Notes: generated from the letters alone by a model not told the origin. A stretch of 64,000 bases of DNA from Sedimentisphaerales bacterium (GCA_963708075.1 OY970194.1:2240001-2304000); one strand, 5' to 3'; counted from the stretch's first letter, positions 22,297-31,731 are shown. Made by a program: numbers and translations.

Positions 22297-22944
22297 ATGA
22301 GCGACCGCATGTTTCGCGTCCAAGTCTTCCTCGAAACCCATTTCGCCCCCCTCCTGCTCCTGTGTCGTCGGCTGCTCGTCGGCTACCCCTACCGCAAGAT
22401 CCCGCTGACGCAGGGCAAGTTCGCCCTCGTGGATCCGGAGGACTATGCCGCGCTCGCCCACCACAAGTGGTGTGCCGCCAGACAGGGCAACAGCTTCTAC
22501 GCCGTGCGCAGCGAGGGCGGCCGCCAGCTCCGCATGCATCGCGTGATCATGAATGCCCCCGCTGATAGGGTCGTCGACCACATCGACCACCAGGGCCTCA
22601 ACAACACCAAGCGCAACCTGCGCCCCTGCAACAAAGCCCAGAACGCGCACGATCAGCGCCCCCAGCAGGGCCGCTCATCCAAGTTCAAAGGAGTCTGCTG
22701 GAACAAGCGAGAGCAAAAGTGGTACTCGCGAATCCAGTACAACGGCCGCCCGCGCTCCCTCGGCCTGTTCGCCAACGAGCGTGACGCCGCCCGCGCCCTC
22801 CACGGCGAATATGCCTTCCTGAATCTCCCCCCCAAACCCTCCCTCCTGGCCGCTCTCAAACGAATCCTGACCCGCGGCCGATTCACGCCAACACGCACGG
22901 GTCCTCAACCACGCGTAACCAAGGTTGTGCCCAAGGATTCGTAG
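22297..22944 (+). CDS. HNH endonuclease with C-terminal AP2 DNA-binding domain
   Basis: IPLTQGKFALVD, MHRVI, VVDHID..GLNN...NLR, SSKFKGV.W...W..RI...LGLF. Confidence 0.85.
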   Translation: MSDRMFRVQVFLETHFAPLLLLCRRLLVGYPYRKIPLTQGKFALVDPEDYAALAHHKWCAARQGNSFYAVRSEGGRQLRMHRVIMNAPADRVVDHIDHQGLNNTKRNLRPCNKAQNAHDQRPQQGRSSKFKGVCWNKREQKWYSRIQYNGRPRSLGLFANERDAARALHGEYAFLNLPPKPSLLAALKRILTRGRFTPTRTGPQPRVTKVVPKDS

Positions 22945-23161
22945 GGTGGGTTCTCAACCCACGCGTCTCCAATATCCCTATCAACCCGGTCAAGCTCGGC
23001 ATGGTTGCGGCCCCGACGGACTGGCCCTGGTCAACCTGCCACCGGTACCTCAGTGACGCCTTTTGCGGCCGACAGAGCCTTCTCAACCAACGCTCCGAGT
23101 TCGAGGGTATTTCTGGAGGTGAATGAAGGACTTTAACGCGTGGGTTGAGAACCCACCCTAC
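22941..23161 (+). mobile_element. Internally deleted RAYT (REPtron) copy between inverted GTAG REPs
   Basis: GTAGGGTGGGTTCTCAACCCACGCG at both ends; interior aligns with the last about 145 nt of RAYT 24418..24969. Confidence 0.85.
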
Positions 23162-23229
23162 ATGCTCTGCTCCAGCGGAACAAATGGTTCGATGGCGGGC
23201 GGGCAGGCGAATAGCAGGCCGGTGCTCTC

Positions 23230-24042
23230 TCAGCGGGCAGGATTATAGCCTTGGCGCATGAATTCGAGATCGTCGGTCCCATCGTTGACGGGCCACTGGA
23301 TGGCTTTGGGATAGTCCACGTAGGTCATGGCCAGGGTGCTCTTCTGCCGCCACTGATGCTGGACGGCGTGACCGTCGGAGAAGCCCAGCACGCTGAGCGA
23401 GCCATGGCGCACGACGATCGGGTCCCACCAGCGGTCCCCCTGCTTCTCCAGGTTCCACGACCCCCAGTTCCAGCCGCCCACGTCGGTCTTCTCCTCGAGG
23501 AAGACATACTTCATGCCCGGATTCTTGATCTCCGTGAGCTTCTTATAGGAGGGATATCCCCAGTTCTGCATGAGCCAACTGGTCGCCCCGGTGCCGACGT
23601 CGCCGTTCATGCTGCCGGGAATGCCGTAACTGCGATGCGTCAACTCGCTGCGGTTTCTGCGGTCGCTGGGGCAGTGATAGAGATCGACCTCCCGCGCGTA
23701 GGGGAACAGGGCGCCGCGTTCGCAGCCGCGTTTCTGATCTTCCAGCCTGTCCGCGGCGATCGGCACCAGGGTCCCGTCCTCAGTCTGCGGCAGTTGCACC
23801 CAGTCATATTTTATGCTGGGCGAGCTGGTATGCCCGTCGTGGCCGCCAACGAGCTTGTGGTCGTTGTCCTGGGCGTACAGAATCCAGGCCAGCACGAGCT
23901 GGTGTTGATTCGAGAGGCACACGCTGCCCGCCGCCTGCCTCTTGATCCTCGAGAAGGCGGGGATCATAATACCCATCAACAGGGCGATGATGGCAATGAC
24001 GACCAGCAGCTCGATGAGCGTGAAACCGCATCGTCTCTTCAT
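23230..24042 (-). CDS. Prepilin-type N-terminal cleavage/methylation protein (planctomycete DUF1559-like)
   Basis: GFTLIELLVVIAIIALL, C.SN..QL, CPSD, RH....LGFSDGH. Confidence 0.9.
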   Translation of the reverse strand: MKRRCGFTLIELLVVIAIIALLMGIMIPAFSRIKRQAAGSVCLSNQHQLVLAWILYAQDNDHKLVGGHDGHTSSPSIKYDWVQLPQTEDGTLVPIAADRLEDQKRGCERGALFPYAREVDLYHCPSDRRNRSELTHRSYGIPGSMNGDVGTGATSWLMQNWGYPSYKKLTEIKNPGMKYVFLEEKTDVGGWNWGSWNLEKQGDRWWDPIVVRHGSLSVLGFSDGHAVQHQWRQKSTLAMTYVDYPKAIQWPVNDGTDDLEFMRQGYNPAR

Positions 24043-24369
24043 AGCGGCGTCTCCCATAGTACCATCCTCACCGGTCCGGCCCGCGGCAACCGGCTCACCT
24101 TTCTCCCTCTCAGTCTACCAAACCCGCACAAATACACAAGAAAAGACTCCCCCAATCCACCGAATCTCTGACGGGAATACGGCCAATTCTGTCCGTGGTC
24201 CGCACCCGGCGTCCTCAGTTGTCGAGCCCTCTACGGTGAATACGCCTCCTCAACCTCCCCCCAAACCCTCCCTGTTGGCCACCATCAAACAAAGACTGAC
24301 CCGCCGCCGATCCACCCCGACACACACGCATTCTCAACAGGGAGCGACTACGGCCGTGTCCAAGAATTC

Positions 24370-25004
24370 GTAGGGTGGGTTCTTAACCCACGCGTGATTT
24401 TGCAGAAGGATCGCGATATGTCCCATTATCGACGCGCCGATTCTCCAGGCGGCTGCTATTTCTTCACCGTCGTGACCTACGACAGGCGTCCGATCTTCGC
24501 CGAGGAGGCAGCCCGAGCCTGTTTGCGTCACGCGTGGCAGACGGTGAAGGAGCGCAAGCCCTTTGAGATCACCGCCCTGTGTCTCCTGCCGGAATACCTG
24601 CACTGCATCTGGAGACTGCCGCCCGACGATGCCGATTTCTCCAGCCGCTGGGCCGGCATCAAGGCGACCTTCACACGCGAGTACCTTCGCGCCGGCGGTC
24701 ACGACGTCGCTCGCAAGCCATCCCACCTGCGCAGCAATGAGGCCGCCATCTGGCAACGACGATTCTGGGAACACAAGATCCGTGATGAGCTCGACCTCAG
24801 CAGGCATATCAACTATATCCATTTCAACCCGGTCAAACACGGCTTAGTCACAGACCCAACCGACTGGTCCTGGTCAACCTACCACCAATACCTGCGCGAA
24901 GGCTACTACGGCCGACAATCCCTCCTCAATCAACGCTCCGAGTTCGAAGATATTTCCGGAGGCGAATAGCGGACATTAACGCGTGGGTTGAGAACCCACC
25001 CTAC
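24370..25004 (+). mobile_element. REPtron: RAYT flanked by inverted GTAG REPs
   Basis: REPs at 24370-24394 and 24980-25004; a further copy at 38072-38096. Confidence 0.88.
24418..24969 (+). CDS. REP-associated tyrosine transposase (RAYT, Y1/HUH); HUH motif reads EYLH
   Basis: YRR...GGCYFFTVVT, LP.YLHCIW, WQRRFWEH.IRD, YIHFNPVKHG, W.WS. Confidence 0.92.
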   Translation: MSHYRRADSPGGCYFFTVVTYDRRPIFAEEAARACLRHAWQTVKERKPFEITALCLLPEYLHCIWRLPPDDADFSSRWAGIKATFTREYLRAGGHDVARKPSHLRSNEAAIWQRRFWEHKIRDELDLSRHINYIHFNPVKHGLVTDPTDWSWSTYHQYLREGYYGRQSLLNQRSEFEDISGGE

Positions 25005-25910: not shown

Positions 25911-26636
25911 TCAGACGGTGCGCGGCCGAGGCACGTCTGCATATCGAATCCGGTCCATCACATGCCGGCTCAGGCACAGGCGAATGATGGCGGCCGTCAG
26001 ATCGCTGGCCTTTTGTCGGCCACCATGAAGTGGGCAGCGGCCGGCCTGGTCTGTTCTGTGCCGTGGGAGAATCGAGCGACGAACCTCCTCCAATGTCCCC
26101 TCGTCCACAGGCAAGCCCGCACCCGACATCGTTACGAACTCGTAGTAAGGCAGAATCCTTGTTGCGACCACCCAGCCCTTCCTGGCAGTCCCGCCGGAAC
26201 CTATATCGACGACCAGATACTCACACCCCTCCGCTAACAGGTCGGTGACGCGAATGCCAACGCCCGGCAGAACCTCTGTTACCTGGGCGAGCGTGTAGAA
26301 CGACTCCAGCATGGCCTTAAGCACGGCGTATTCCTCTGAGCCGGGGTCCGGATTCGCATTCGCGACGTACTGCTCGACGGCGTTGCCCGCCTTCGGGCGA
26401 AAATCGTGGATGCAATAGTCCATCAAGACGCTCATCTCGTCCTCAGATTCGAAGACCAGCGTGCCCCGCTGCCAAAGGCCGAGTTTCTTGGCACACGTCT
26501 CAAACGCCCGTCTCGGCAGATACTTGGGCAGGACCTCGCCATTCAGTTTCCGCCCAATCTGCCGCAACCGCCGATACCGCTCCACCCGCCGAGCTTCGTC
26601 GCCGCTCTTGAACAGCCAATCCATCATCCGTGTCAC
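25911..26636 (-). CDS. Hypothetical protein
   Basis: 241-aa ORF with plausible codon usage. Confidence 0.65.
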   Translation of the reverse strand: MTRMMDWLFKSGDEARRVERYRRLRQIGRKLNGEVLPKYLPRRAFETCAKKLGLWQRGTLVFESEDEMSVLMDYCIHDFRPKAGNAVEQYVANANPDPGSEEYAVLKAMLESFYTLAQVTEVLPGVGIRVTDLLAEGCEYLVVDIGSGGTARKGWVVATRILPYYEFVTMSGAGLPVDEGTLEEVRRSILPRHRTDQAGRCPLHGGRQKASDLTAAIIRLCLSRHVMDRIRYADVPRPRTV

Positions 26637-26787: not shown

Positions 26788-26855
26788 GAGGCCGGCTCCT
26801 ATGCGGAACCGGCCCTTGTAAAGAACCCCTGGCAATCACCTACTCTGGCCGCAAA
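26788..26855 (-). repeat. Displaced 5S rRNA 3'-end fragment plus terminator (copy 3)
   Basis: GGAACCGGCCCT...CCTGGCAATCACCTACTCT matches 27988-28028. Confidence 0.85.
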
Positions 26856-26935
26856 TACTCTGCTGACAACCGCGTTCTCCAAGGACTCCAACTCGCCCGT
26901 GCGGACCGCGCAAACGTGACGGCATACTCAGCCAT
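26850..26935 (-). pseudogene. Truncated RelE/ParE-family toxin
   Basis: MAEYAVTFARSAR / ELESLENAVVSRVF (frameshifted), start overlaps the antitoxin end, cut off at the 5S fragment. Confidence 0.7.
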
Positions 26936-27119
26936 TGAGTTTGCCCTTGCGTTGCAGGCGTCTCTTTACCGAGGCCAGCGACTCGCGACGCTCATTCACT
27001 CGGCTTTGGGCGATCAGCGTGTCGTAGAAGTCCTCCCAGACATCCCCGAATTTCTTCAAATCGATGACGACCGCCTTCTCGGCGCCCTTATCAGCCACCA
27101 CGAATTCGATACCACTCAT
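26928..27119 (-). CDS. Putative antitoxin (63 aa)
   Basis: IEFVV..KG..KAVVIDL...WEDFYD pattern directly upstream of the RelE-like remnant; GAGGTGG RBS. Confidence 0.7.
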   Translation of the reverse strand: MSGIEFVVADKGAEKAVVIDLKKFGDVWEDFYDTLIAQSRVNERRESLASVKRRLQRKGKLNG

Positions 27120-27171
27120 AACAAACCACCTCTCTCCGGCCCCAGGTCGGACTGAGAGCCTTCAAAGGACT

Positions 27172-27200
27172 ATTATGAAGCGGCCAGACATTCCGGGCAA
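27172..27200 (-). promoter_or_regulatory. Sigma70-type promoter of the antitoxin-relE cassette
   Basis: TTGCCC-N17-CATAAT. Confidence 0.55.
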
Positions 27201-27230
27201 GTAGTTTCCTGCAAGCCCCCGCGCAAAAGG

Positions 27231-27308
27231 AAAGCCCTGTCGAGGCTACCCGACAGGGCTTGTAAAAACTTCCTGGCCATCACCTACTCTCGCCGCAAAG
27301 CGACTACC
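27231..27308 (-). repeat. Displaced 5S rRNA 3'-end fragment plus terminator (copy 2)
   Basis: AAGCCCTGTCG..CGACAGGGCTT hairpin next to TCCTGGCCATCACCTACTCTCGCCGCAAAGCGACTACC. Confidence 0.85.
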
Positions 27309-27456
27309 CATTTCACCGCCATTCAGATGGCATATCCGGCGACTCACCGGCAGATTTGTGCTATCCCGGGGCATGGGTGCGGTGTGAAATGCCAGGTGAG
27401 CCGCGAATGCCTGCTCGGTCCCATCGATGAGCATACGCGGCCGGGACTGGGAAACG

Positions 27457-27639
27457 ATGAAAGAGAAGATAGTCGAAGACTGGCTCTCACTCGCTCAGTA
27501 CGATCTGGCAACCGCTTACATCGAATCCCGCTACACTGAGGACATTCAGGAGTTGGCCGCAATCCTGACCGAGGCAAAGGCCGGTGCGATTCTGAAATCT
27601 ACGCGCGAGGTGTTTGCATGGATCAGGTCGAAGCTGTAA
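27457..27639 (+). pseudogene. HEPN-domain protein with internal deletion
   Basis: W...A.YDLATA fused directly to YIESRY; the central QQA.EK...H.L region is missing; overlaps the MNT gene. Confidence 0.7.
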
Positions 27640-27941
27640 TTCGCGAGAAGATTCTTCGATTCCACGAATCGGCCAGCCGGCAGTTCCCGATCCGCAAGGT
27701 GCTGCTCTACGGCTCGTACGCAAAGGGACGCGCCACGCCGCAGAGCGACATCGACGTCGCCGTCGTCGTGGAGGAGGCCGACCATACGAGGCGCATTGAG
27801 ATCACCGCAGCGCTCTTCCACTGGGCAGCCCAAGTCGACCCGGCGATAGAACCCAAGTGCGTCTTTTGGGATGAGTACAAAAACCCAGACACAGCCAGCA
27901 TTCTGTCCGAGATCATCGCCACGGCCATCGAGATCGTGTGA
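27618..27941 (+). CDS. Minimal nucleotidyltransferase (MNT) antitoxin
   Basis: LYGSYAKG.....SDIDVAVV motif, 107 aa. Confidence 0.9.
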   Translation: MDQVEAVIREKILRFHESASRQFPIRKVLLYGSYAKGRATPQSDIDVAVVVEEADHTRRIEITAALFHWAAQVDPAIEPKCVFWDEYKNPDTASILSEIIATAIEIV

Positions 27942-27965
27942 AGCGTCGCGTTTCACCGAGTAAAT

Positions 27966-27999
27966 AAAAAAGGGCCGGGTCCTTTAGGGAACCGGCCCT
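27966..27999 (-). terminator. Intrinsic terminator of the rRNA operon
   Basis: AGGGCCGG..CC/GG..CCGGCCCT hairpin followed by a U-tract on the minus strand. Confidence 0.8.
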
Positions 28000-28007
28000 C
28001 ATAAAAA

Positions 28008-28119
28008 TTCCTGGCAATCACCTACTCTCGCCCCGAAGGACTACCATCGGCCGCGACGGGCTTAGCTTCTGTGTTCGGAATGGGAACAGGCGTTTCCCCG
28101 TACGTAAGGTCACCAGGAA
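28008..28119 (-). rRNA. rrf: 5S rRNA
   Basis: CCTGG terminal helix, CCCATTCCGAACACAGAAGCTAAG, GAGAGTAGGT; about 110 nt. Confidence 0.95.
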
Positions 28120-28263
28120 ATTCGTATATCAGGCTTTCGCCTGACAATTTCCAATCTCAGATCTCAAAGAGCCCCCCCTGCCTGTGCAGGGAGGAATCTT
28201 TGAAGTGTAAGCGGATGCAATGAGCGTCATTGGCTACTTGACCCATGCAATCCATGATTGATA

Positions 28264-31192
<2,929 letters not shown>

Positions 31193-31530: not shown

Positions 31531-31603
31531 TGGAGACGACCGGGGTCGAACCGGCAACCTCTAGCTTGCAAAGCTAGCGCTCTCCCAGTTGAGCTACGTC
31601 CCC
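31531..31603 (-). tRNA. tRNA-Ala(TGC), CCA not encoded
   Basis: GGGGACGTAGCTCAACTGGGAGAGCGCTAGCTTTGCAAGCTAGAGGTTGCCGGTTCGACCCCGGTCGTCTCCA. Confidence 0.95.
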
Positions 31604-31657
31604 CGGACCGCACCAAAGGTATCTGAGATCTCAAATTTGAAATCACAGATCTCCAAG

Positions 31658-31731
<74 letters not shown>

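Follow-up and report, generated by a model that had tools for sequence, protein, structure and literature searches.

Stacked remnants of the 5S rRNA 3' end and its terminator in Sedimentisphaerales: a possible slot for gene capture without a dedicated integrase

An integrase and a tRNA-type att site are regarded as requirements of additive islands in bacteria, and a locus in which genes appear to have been added in series behind an rRNA gene raises the question of how they came to be there. The locus lies within a stretch of 64,000 nucleotides (the window) of a Sedimentisphaerales genome of 7.5 Mb (G000), which has a single 23S-5S unit, within the window, and an unlinked 16S gene 1.07 Mb off (C1:1194084-1195618). 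A tRNA-Ala and a tRNA-Ile are found upstream of the 23S gene at 31531-31731, with no 16S gene before them. The features, in window coordinates and in the order in which the rRNA unit is read, are these.

28263..31192, minus strand: 23S rRNA gene, single copy in the genome
28009..28117, minus strand: intact 5S rRNA gene, the only copy in the genome, with the CCTTCGGG stem-loop allele
27972..27998, minus strand: terminator hairpin T1, nearest to the type behind 5S in G015 (92.5% over 40 nt)
27618..27941, plus strand: MNT nucleotidyltransferase antitoxin gene, 107 aa, uninterrupted (PF01909, E=6.5e-11)
27457..27639, plus strand: HEPN gene remnant, 60 aa, middle part absent
27272..27308, minus strand: 5S remnant f1, 5S profile positions 72-107, with the CGCTTTGCG allele
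27234..27259, minus strand: terminator hairpin T2, of the type behind full 5S genes in G021, G022, G013, G011 and G006
26928..27119, minus strand: antitoxin gene, 63 aa, uninterrupted
26856..26935, minus strand: relE/parE 5' remnant, about 27 codons with a 1-nt deletion, ending at the f2 joint
26828..26855, minus strand: 5S remnant f2, 5S profile positions 81-107
26790..26814, minus strand: terminator hairpin T3; in L190-L192 intact 5S genes end in sequence 85% identical to f2 and T3 together
25911..26636, minus strand: gene of 241 aa, with no Pfam or NCBIfam family

A first reading, made from the sequence alone, held that the 5S 3' end plus a terminator hairpin is present three times, and this is borne out by the gene with T1, f1 with T2 and f2 with T3, both remnants being downstream of the 5S gene, on its strand and each with a hairpin after it. 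The 3' 22-mer of 5S has three matches genome-wide (up to 2 mismatches, either strand), all inside these 1.2 kb. By blastn against the whole genome f1 is found with E=5e-8 and f2 plus its own terminator with E=8e-11, the significance of f2 needing the terminator to be included, as f2 without it is not significant genome-wide (nhmmer E=3.8). No Rfam family is found in the window's intervals by Rfam search, a CM search that is insensitive to such remnants, having missed the window's own, and that served for gene location only. The same reading took the displaced fragments to come from another functional 5S allele, which is also correct, since the CGCTTTGCG stem-loop is present in intact, full-length 23S-linked 5S genes in two of three genome hits (L099, L100) and three of four metagenome hits (L190-L192). 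A head-on conflict between replication and transcription was considered and set aside, both rRNA units (23S-5S and 16S) being co-directional with replication by GC skew.

The two intervals measure 701 and 417 nt and had been described as holding a HEPN-MNT pair and an antitoxin-RelE pair, a description that is right as to the pairs and not as to their completeness. In the first interval, where the cassette is inverted relative to the rRNA, the MNT domain gene adjoins the HEPN gene in the arrangement of HEPN-MNT toxin-antitoxin pairs; against NF047752 it scores 43.4 bits, under the 60-bit cut-off. The HEPN remnant matches Pfam profile positions 79-116 of 117 only and is not a full-length toxin, the gene having presumably suffered an in-frame internal deletion. 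In the second interval the 63-aa antitoxin overlaps a ParE/RelE gene, identified through the homologous pairs L117 and L064, which match PF05016, and through DNA alignment that agrees; homologues of this antitoxin come before ParE/RelE toxins in L117, L064 and L192, and after the full 5S gene in G006. The toxin gene is frameshifted and truncated. Thus both toxins are broken and both antitoxin ORFs are uninterrupted, and the toxin-antitoxin pairs of the window are decayed, not intact. In G006 (L010, C234) the full 5S gene is followed by this antitoxin with the first four relE codons only, fused in frame to an unrelated gene, which is an independent loss of the toxin. The RelE 'RVGDY' codons that mimic the 5S tail were examined as the joint and rejected, the joint being ~75 nt upstream of that motif. 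Elsewhere in the window a gene like a REP-associated tyrosine transposase (24394-24969, PF01797 just under cut-off) is flanked by 26-nt inverted REP copies (region 22941-25004), and a further REP pair is found at 22941-23161 after an HNH/AP2-like ORF.

Misassembly or a strain chimera, named in the first reading as a way in which it could fail, has to be considered in an uncultured genome that is 92.8% complete with 3.8% contamination. A 370-nt short-read contig covers 26821-27190 with one difference and no gap, bridging the distal relE/f2 joint, and other short-read contigs run across the HEPN deletion and across T2 with part of f1; at the f1 joint the overlap is 14 nt only, and no bridge of 31 nt is found, among the matches listed. 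As the best-matching read runs may stem from the window's own sample, these contigs check the assembly and not the spread of the feature. No joint that skips a cassette is seen in the short-read contigs, which at their low depth is a weak negative on excised circles. With the remnants differing from the gene and the pattern found again in 32 other genomes of the order, with joints in common, an artefact of assembly has next to no chance of being the explanation.

The spread was followed by screening 400 genomes of the order with the 5S 3' half as query, scoring up to 2 candidates per genome. A match was found in 209 genomes and a second match in 31, two of which (G144 and G065) were dropped as full copies or contig edges; the other 29 carry remnants, that is 29 of the 209 genomes with a 5S match. 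Two more were found among 20 single-match loci chosen for their long flanks, and the collection stands at 61 remnants from 36 loci in 33 genomes, in stacks of up to four. Every one of the 44 remnants behind a resident 5S gene (25 loci) is on the strand of that gene, and for the remaining 17 of the 61 no resident 5S was seen in the DNA examined. In G191 a single 20-nt tail repeat, seen by self-blast only, was left out of the counts. No opposite-strand hits were obtained in 50 control loci, no remnants were found at 14 other full 5S loci of the genus, five of which have less than 4 kb of flank, and none at 40 loci (10 kb flank) of other Planctomycetota with a test that recovered 20 of 20 known cases.

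Across the order the cargo between copies is 0.2-9.5 kb long and includes other gene types, so that the sub-kb toxin-antitoxin cargo described at first holds for the window and not for the order at large. Genes of toxin-antitoxin type are present at 14 of the 25 loci with remnants; among 5S genes without remnants, 8 of 45 have such genes no farther than 1.5 kb away, the lengths compared being unmatched between the two groups. A tandem duplication of the cargo was tried as an explanation and discarded, as cargo in the form of a tandem copy of what follows it was not seen in 50 intervals, except for a paralogous large gene in G044 and short repeats. Many of the remnants (L066, L072, L077, L083, L064) are interrupted at ~80 and ~90 by short palindromic REP-like insertions. 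A separate case is L048 (G026:C15:963-7060), in which four internal 5S pieces, ending near 78-84, have GNAT, TerB and TPR genes in the gaps; the 16 kb examined hold no full 5S gene.

It might be assumed that the remnants are decayed extra 5S genes, each a whole-gene duplication behind whose terminator cargo was inserted independently. Near full-length copies do exist in G161, G359 and L189, a second full 5S gene is present in G144, and the 8 remnant-free loci of 45 show that toxin-antitoxin genes can follow 5S where no remnant is seen. Remnants that are 98-100% identical to the gene are nevertheless already 5'-truncated, cargo ORFs run into remnants, and a tail of 16S, which is scarred in the same way (see below), is not a copy of a gene. 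Ancestral tandem 5S genes with constant intervening genes, the case that the first reading had set against itself, are also contradicted by intervening genes that differ between genomes, and duplication followed by decay is given a slender chance.

Comparison with relatives gives the layers of the window a likely source. The full 5S gene, terminator, spacer and antitoxin of G006 are 80% identical over 388 nt to window 27308-26925. In L190 a full 5S gene with the allele of the remnants has a T3-like terminator behind it, then an MNT-HepT pair, and the 241-aa gene (88%) at a distance of 1 kb; in L192, where no remnant is present, a 5S gene of the same allele precedes an antitoxin-relE pair that is intact, and the 241-aa gene comes after that pair; and in G021 the 241-aa gene comes directly after 5S. 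By these arrangements the stretch from 5S to the 241-aa gene, which is its downstream boundary, is a variable slot that is filled with or without a scar. f1 with T2 is also 89% identical over 91 nt to a displaced 5S copy in L189 (1203-1402), which is full-length though degenerate, has a spacer of ~35 nt and a T2-like terminator, and is preceded by an ATPase-like ORF in place of 23S. Each remnant with its downstream gene thus matches an intact rrn end elsewhere (G006, L190), in agreement with the proposal that cargo was added serially at the 5S 3' end. When remnants were compared with 76 alleles, the 5S of their own genome was in the top 5 for the remnant body in 12 of 17 cases, and for the terminator in 5 of 17 only, and the mismatches of allele and terminator are compatible with a donor tract in the anchor.

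If an integrase had made these scars then a fixed crossover would be expected, and the starts of the remnants are of interest here. The 61 remnants, which are not mutually independent and were collected with the 5S 3' half as query, start at positions 2-85, with 30 of them at 42-55 and 14 at or before 27. Young remnants (98-100% to their own gene) start at ~61-65 in G042, G059 and G077. In the GTDB loci tested no remnant extends into 23S, and no 23S piece was found downstream.

The 16S gene, which in its repeats has no sequence in common with 5S, was found to bear the same scars. With the 16S 3' end as query a second match is present in 30 of 207 genomes, of which 23 were followed, the other seven being near-complete genomes with apparently two operons. 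Eight of the 23 have a 16S piece on the same strand and contig 2-6 kb downstream, two of the eight being internal pieces and one cut by a contig end. The repeats include the trailer and reach 593 nt at 98.8% in G112 and 221 nt at 99.1% in G328, with 181 nt at 98.3% in G313, cut by the contig end; the starts of these young remnants differ (1183, 1325 and 1485, respectively). As starts vary even among remnants of 98-100% identity, in 5S and 16S alike, the variation is not due to erosion alone. With the 16S 5' end as query a second match was found in 13 of 226 genomes, and no upstream remnant on the same contig among the seven that were followed, the other six being near-complete genomes in which each of the 16S searches gave two matches. 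The process is thus not specific to 5S and is polar to 3' ends. Extra 16S hits in G237 were excluded as divergent rRNA of another origin.

The cargo of the 16S intervals comprises a methylase cluster, two-component pairs, a glycosyltransferase, DruA and an efflux operon. In L108 (G321:C13) DruA and an ORC/CDC6-kinase gene are found between the 16S end and the remnant, and in L102 (G328:C52) a C5-methylase/ATPase/HhH cluster, both being possible defence genes. In G000 itself a 110-nt internal 16S piece (C1:1202917-1203026, positions 1225-1333, 90%) is present 7.3 kb downstream of 16S, with a kdpABCD operon between.

Reverse transcription, suggested by the 5' truncation of the remnants, was ruled out as their origin, since RVT_1 is present in 3 of 26 remnant-bearing genomes versus 8 of 18 remnant-free ones and L189 includes spacer DNA. 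The only reverse transcriptase of G000 (C1:1191259-1192818, 519 aa, 1.3 kb upstream of 16S) is by its appearance presumably of the defence type.

An intact target with a displaced 3' fragment on the same strand is what integrase islands show, and it is found in 44 of 44 cases, from which the first reading took the locus to carry the attL/attR signature of an integrase that targets 5S. This is not upheld by the rest of the evidence. Rather than a fixed crossover and a short att core there are starts from 2 to 85, a spacer included in L189 and 16S repeats of up to 593 nt, with the cluster at 42-55 remaining; rather than a single specific target the unrelated 16S 3' end bears the same scars. No integrase or recombinase is found in the 108 ORFs of 25 5S loci, which hold one IS200 transposase, nor in the 34 ORFs of nine 16S intervals, young cases included, which makes none in 142 interval ORFs. 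That no integrase is in view was rightly noted at the outset, and the search for a linked recombinase, then proposed as a check, found none in the intervals. The nearest PF00589 tyrosine recombinase in G000 is 123 kb away, the genome has four PF00589 and two PF00239 genes, all elsewhere, and no PF07508 large serine recombinase was found in it. Among the 150 PF00589 matches listed for 30 remnant-bearing genomes, which have 99 further ones, none is in an array and two are ~20 kb from one. No carrier of an rRNA tail was found in viral contigs, phages or plasmids, which is a weak negative.

G000 does offer a contrast in its tRNA-Phe pieces, which end at one fixed point as expected of integrase scars. 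There are eight partial copies of tRNA-Phe (~positions 22-63), found at C1:4087590-4177368 and also at 2097732-2097761 and 3099765-3099799, six of them 6-96 kb downstream of tRNA-Phe; seven of the eight were inspected and have the same end in the T-loop, several with a common upstream arm. Their appearance is that of site-specific att scars, in unusually large number and without the tRNA 3' end.

A site-specific recombinase that acts in trans, or has since been lost, with its att site in the 5S gene and the remnants as eroded attR, could nonetheless be envisaged. The architecture equals that of stacked tRNA islands (bioRxiv 2020.12.28.424599), nearly half of the starts (30 of 61) are within 42-55, the limit to one order (none in 40 loci elsewhere) and to 3' ends would suit a lineage-specific enzyme, and G000 has the six recombinase genes mentioned. 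The 14 remnants that start at or before 27, the spacer in L189, 16S repeats (221-593 nt) that share nothing with 5S, and the lack of a recombinase in the intervals, of PF00589 in any array among the matches listed and of a carrier make such an enzyme an unlikely author of these arrays.

Of the 61 joints, 34 have the stop codon of a co-directional cargo ORF no more than 50 nt away, against a null mean of 6.5 and a maximum of 16 in 2000 draws, a null that ignores intergenic placement and is applied to remnants that are not independent. Ten of the 34 ORFs stop inside the remnant, and such stops may explain the cluster of starts just before the TAA of 5S. Joints are also common to homologous cassettes across genera and families, with the same antitoxin-relE cassette in G345, G328 and G396 having its joint near position 46-49, and with further sharing between G143 and G044, G044 and G087, and G190 and G326. 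The second cassette of the window looks as if this antitoxin-relE cassette had undergone a deletion that runs from relE into the remnant, and the relE/f2 joint is probably that secondary deletion; microhomology, inspected at this joint only, is 2-3 nt.

Taken together, it is reasonably likely that the slot behind the rRNA terminator is a site of gene capture that works without a dedicated integrase, by a homologous crossover in the rRNA tail and a non-homologous joint, with later trimming by deletion. The reasons are that remnant and downstream gene equal an intact rrn end in relatives, that remnants are on the same strand with starts that vary even in young ones, that the 16S 3' end is scarred likewise with no linked integrase, that joints are shared and near stops, that remnant bodies resemble the host's own 5S more often than the terminators do, and that cargo does not duplicate in tandem what comes after it. 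A second joint that is not fixed, which is a trait of homology-facilitated illegitimate recombination, is seen here, in young remnants as well. ComEC, DprA and Ku are encoded in G000, a matter of gene presence only and not evidence of transformation.

By such a route the incoming DNA of a relative, consisting of the 3' part of an rRNA gene, its terminator and the neighbouring genes, would pair with the resident through the conserved rRNA tail and would be joined non-homologously at its other end. Where this joint fell downstream, resident genes would be replaced without a scar, as may have happened in L190 and L192; where it fell inside the rRNA gene, the gene would be restored whole, with the old tail and terminator displaced behind the cargo. 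Repeated events would give the stacks of up to four remnants that are seen, and deletions and REP-like insertions, such as those observed, would erode the scars. Joints that supply a cargo gene with a stop codon and a terminator would tend to be retained through selection on the cargo 3' end, in keeping with the stops described, and cassettes bounded by tails may later move as units by recombination on those tails. For the window f2, T3 and the 241-aa gene would be the oldest layer, f1 with T2 and antitoxin-relE the next, and the present 5S end with T1 and MNT/HEPN the last, both toxins having perhaps decayed after the last insertion.

Several observations do not sit easily with capture through the rRNA tail. 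The cluster of starts at 42-55 (30 of 61) would also be expected from a preferred crossover site, the absence of remnants that reach 23S in the GTDB loci fits only if it is further assumed that long repeats pop out, and the shared joints could have come about by vertical inheritance with homogenisation by gene conversion. Capture of this kind also fails to account for the limit to one order and to 3' ends, because homology-facilitated illegitimate recombination is not lineage-specific. Furthermore, L192, with antitoxin-relE directly before the 241-aa gene and no remnant, allows the reverse order of events.

L192 also bears on the possibility that the anchor is the downstream gene, with a donor that ends in its own rRNA tail recombining there and joining non-homologously on the left, the remnant then being donor DNA and the full gene never having been displaced. 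The order of 5S, terminator, antitoxin-relE and 241-aa gene in L192, without a remnant, would be as expected, as would the match to L190 of the f2-T3 region upstream of the 241-aa gene in the window, and the lack of 23S-bearing remnants would be explained, long homology giving a clean replacement. Cassettes share joints across families in which the downstream genes differ, though, remnant bodies are usually like the host's own allele, and stacks of three to four are not easily produced in this manner, which makes a downstream anchor distinctly improbable.

Capture behind the rRNA tail may be compared with several known systems. Additive islands at the 3' ends of tRNA and tmRNA genes, such as tycheposon islands (bioRxiv 2020.12.28.424599) and the additive fGIs of Alteromonas (PMC5217437), have the same intact RNA gene, cargo and same-strand partial copy, with older material pushed outward and distal decay. 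Here the targets are 5S and 16S, the cargo is integrase-free, the old terminator travels with the remnant, and in place of a fixed att core of ~40 nt there are repeats of 27-593 nt with variable starts. The feature thus resembles an additive stable-RNA island, but lacks three of the defining marks of that family.

Homology-facilitated illegitimate recombination has been described in S. pneumoniae as well as in A. baylyi and P. stutzeri and shares with the present case one homologous anchor, one non-homologous joint and a gain of foreign DNA without mobility genes (PMC2884548, PMC6382021). It is known there from laboratory constructs; in the present case an rRNA tail would serve as anchor, part of the target is duplicated, the events form stacks and are polar, and RecA dependence is putative. 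The tRNA-linked repeats rrA/rrB/rrF of E. coli also have a copy of the 5S 3' end and then a second terminator downstream of rrn, and are reported with an 18-19 bp repeat, a conserved 150-bp spacing and a conserved small RNA (PMC8144298). The repeats described here are longer than those of E. coli and the cargo between them is variable, protein-coding and of 0.2-9.5 kb (701 and 417 nt in the window), so that the arrays do not belong to this class of repeat.

Two further systems share single traits or more. Starships such as Voyager are eukaryotic elements that insert into 5S rDNA, a multicopy target, with their own recombinase; the site is in common, and here 5S is single-copy with no linked enzyme. 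Integrons hold stacked cassettes in which toxin-antitoxin and defence genes are plentiful; the newest presumably lies closest to the fixed end, and boundaries are near ORF ends, all of which is similar to the rRNA arrays. Unlike in integrons, no IntI, attI or attC is seen here, and it is rRNA tails with terminators that separate the cassettes. Cassettes of this kind in bacteria were not found described in the literature searched, which was mostly outside subscription journals and without supplements.

More tentatively, and as a possibility to be held loosely, the order may run an integron-like gene pool without an integrase, in which tail-bounded cassettes exit and re-enter on the 3' ends of 5S or 16S and cross genera and families, the tail providing the cargo with its stop codon and its terminator; both the polarity and the limit to one order would then be explained by a lineage-specific factor at the ends of rRNA transcription.

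In the order, one genome in seven or more thus appears to use single-copy rRNA genes as landing pads, for cargo that is free of enzymes of its own. On this reading the partial 16S and 5S copies in these genomes are real and not assembly noise or contamination, and rRNA 3' ends may be mosaic. If capture through the rRNA tail is correct, the most conserved DNA of the cell would act as a cross-family anchor for gene transfer, and the stacked scars would record in nature, in a form that can be dated, a process for which laboratory transformation has been the main source of knowledge.
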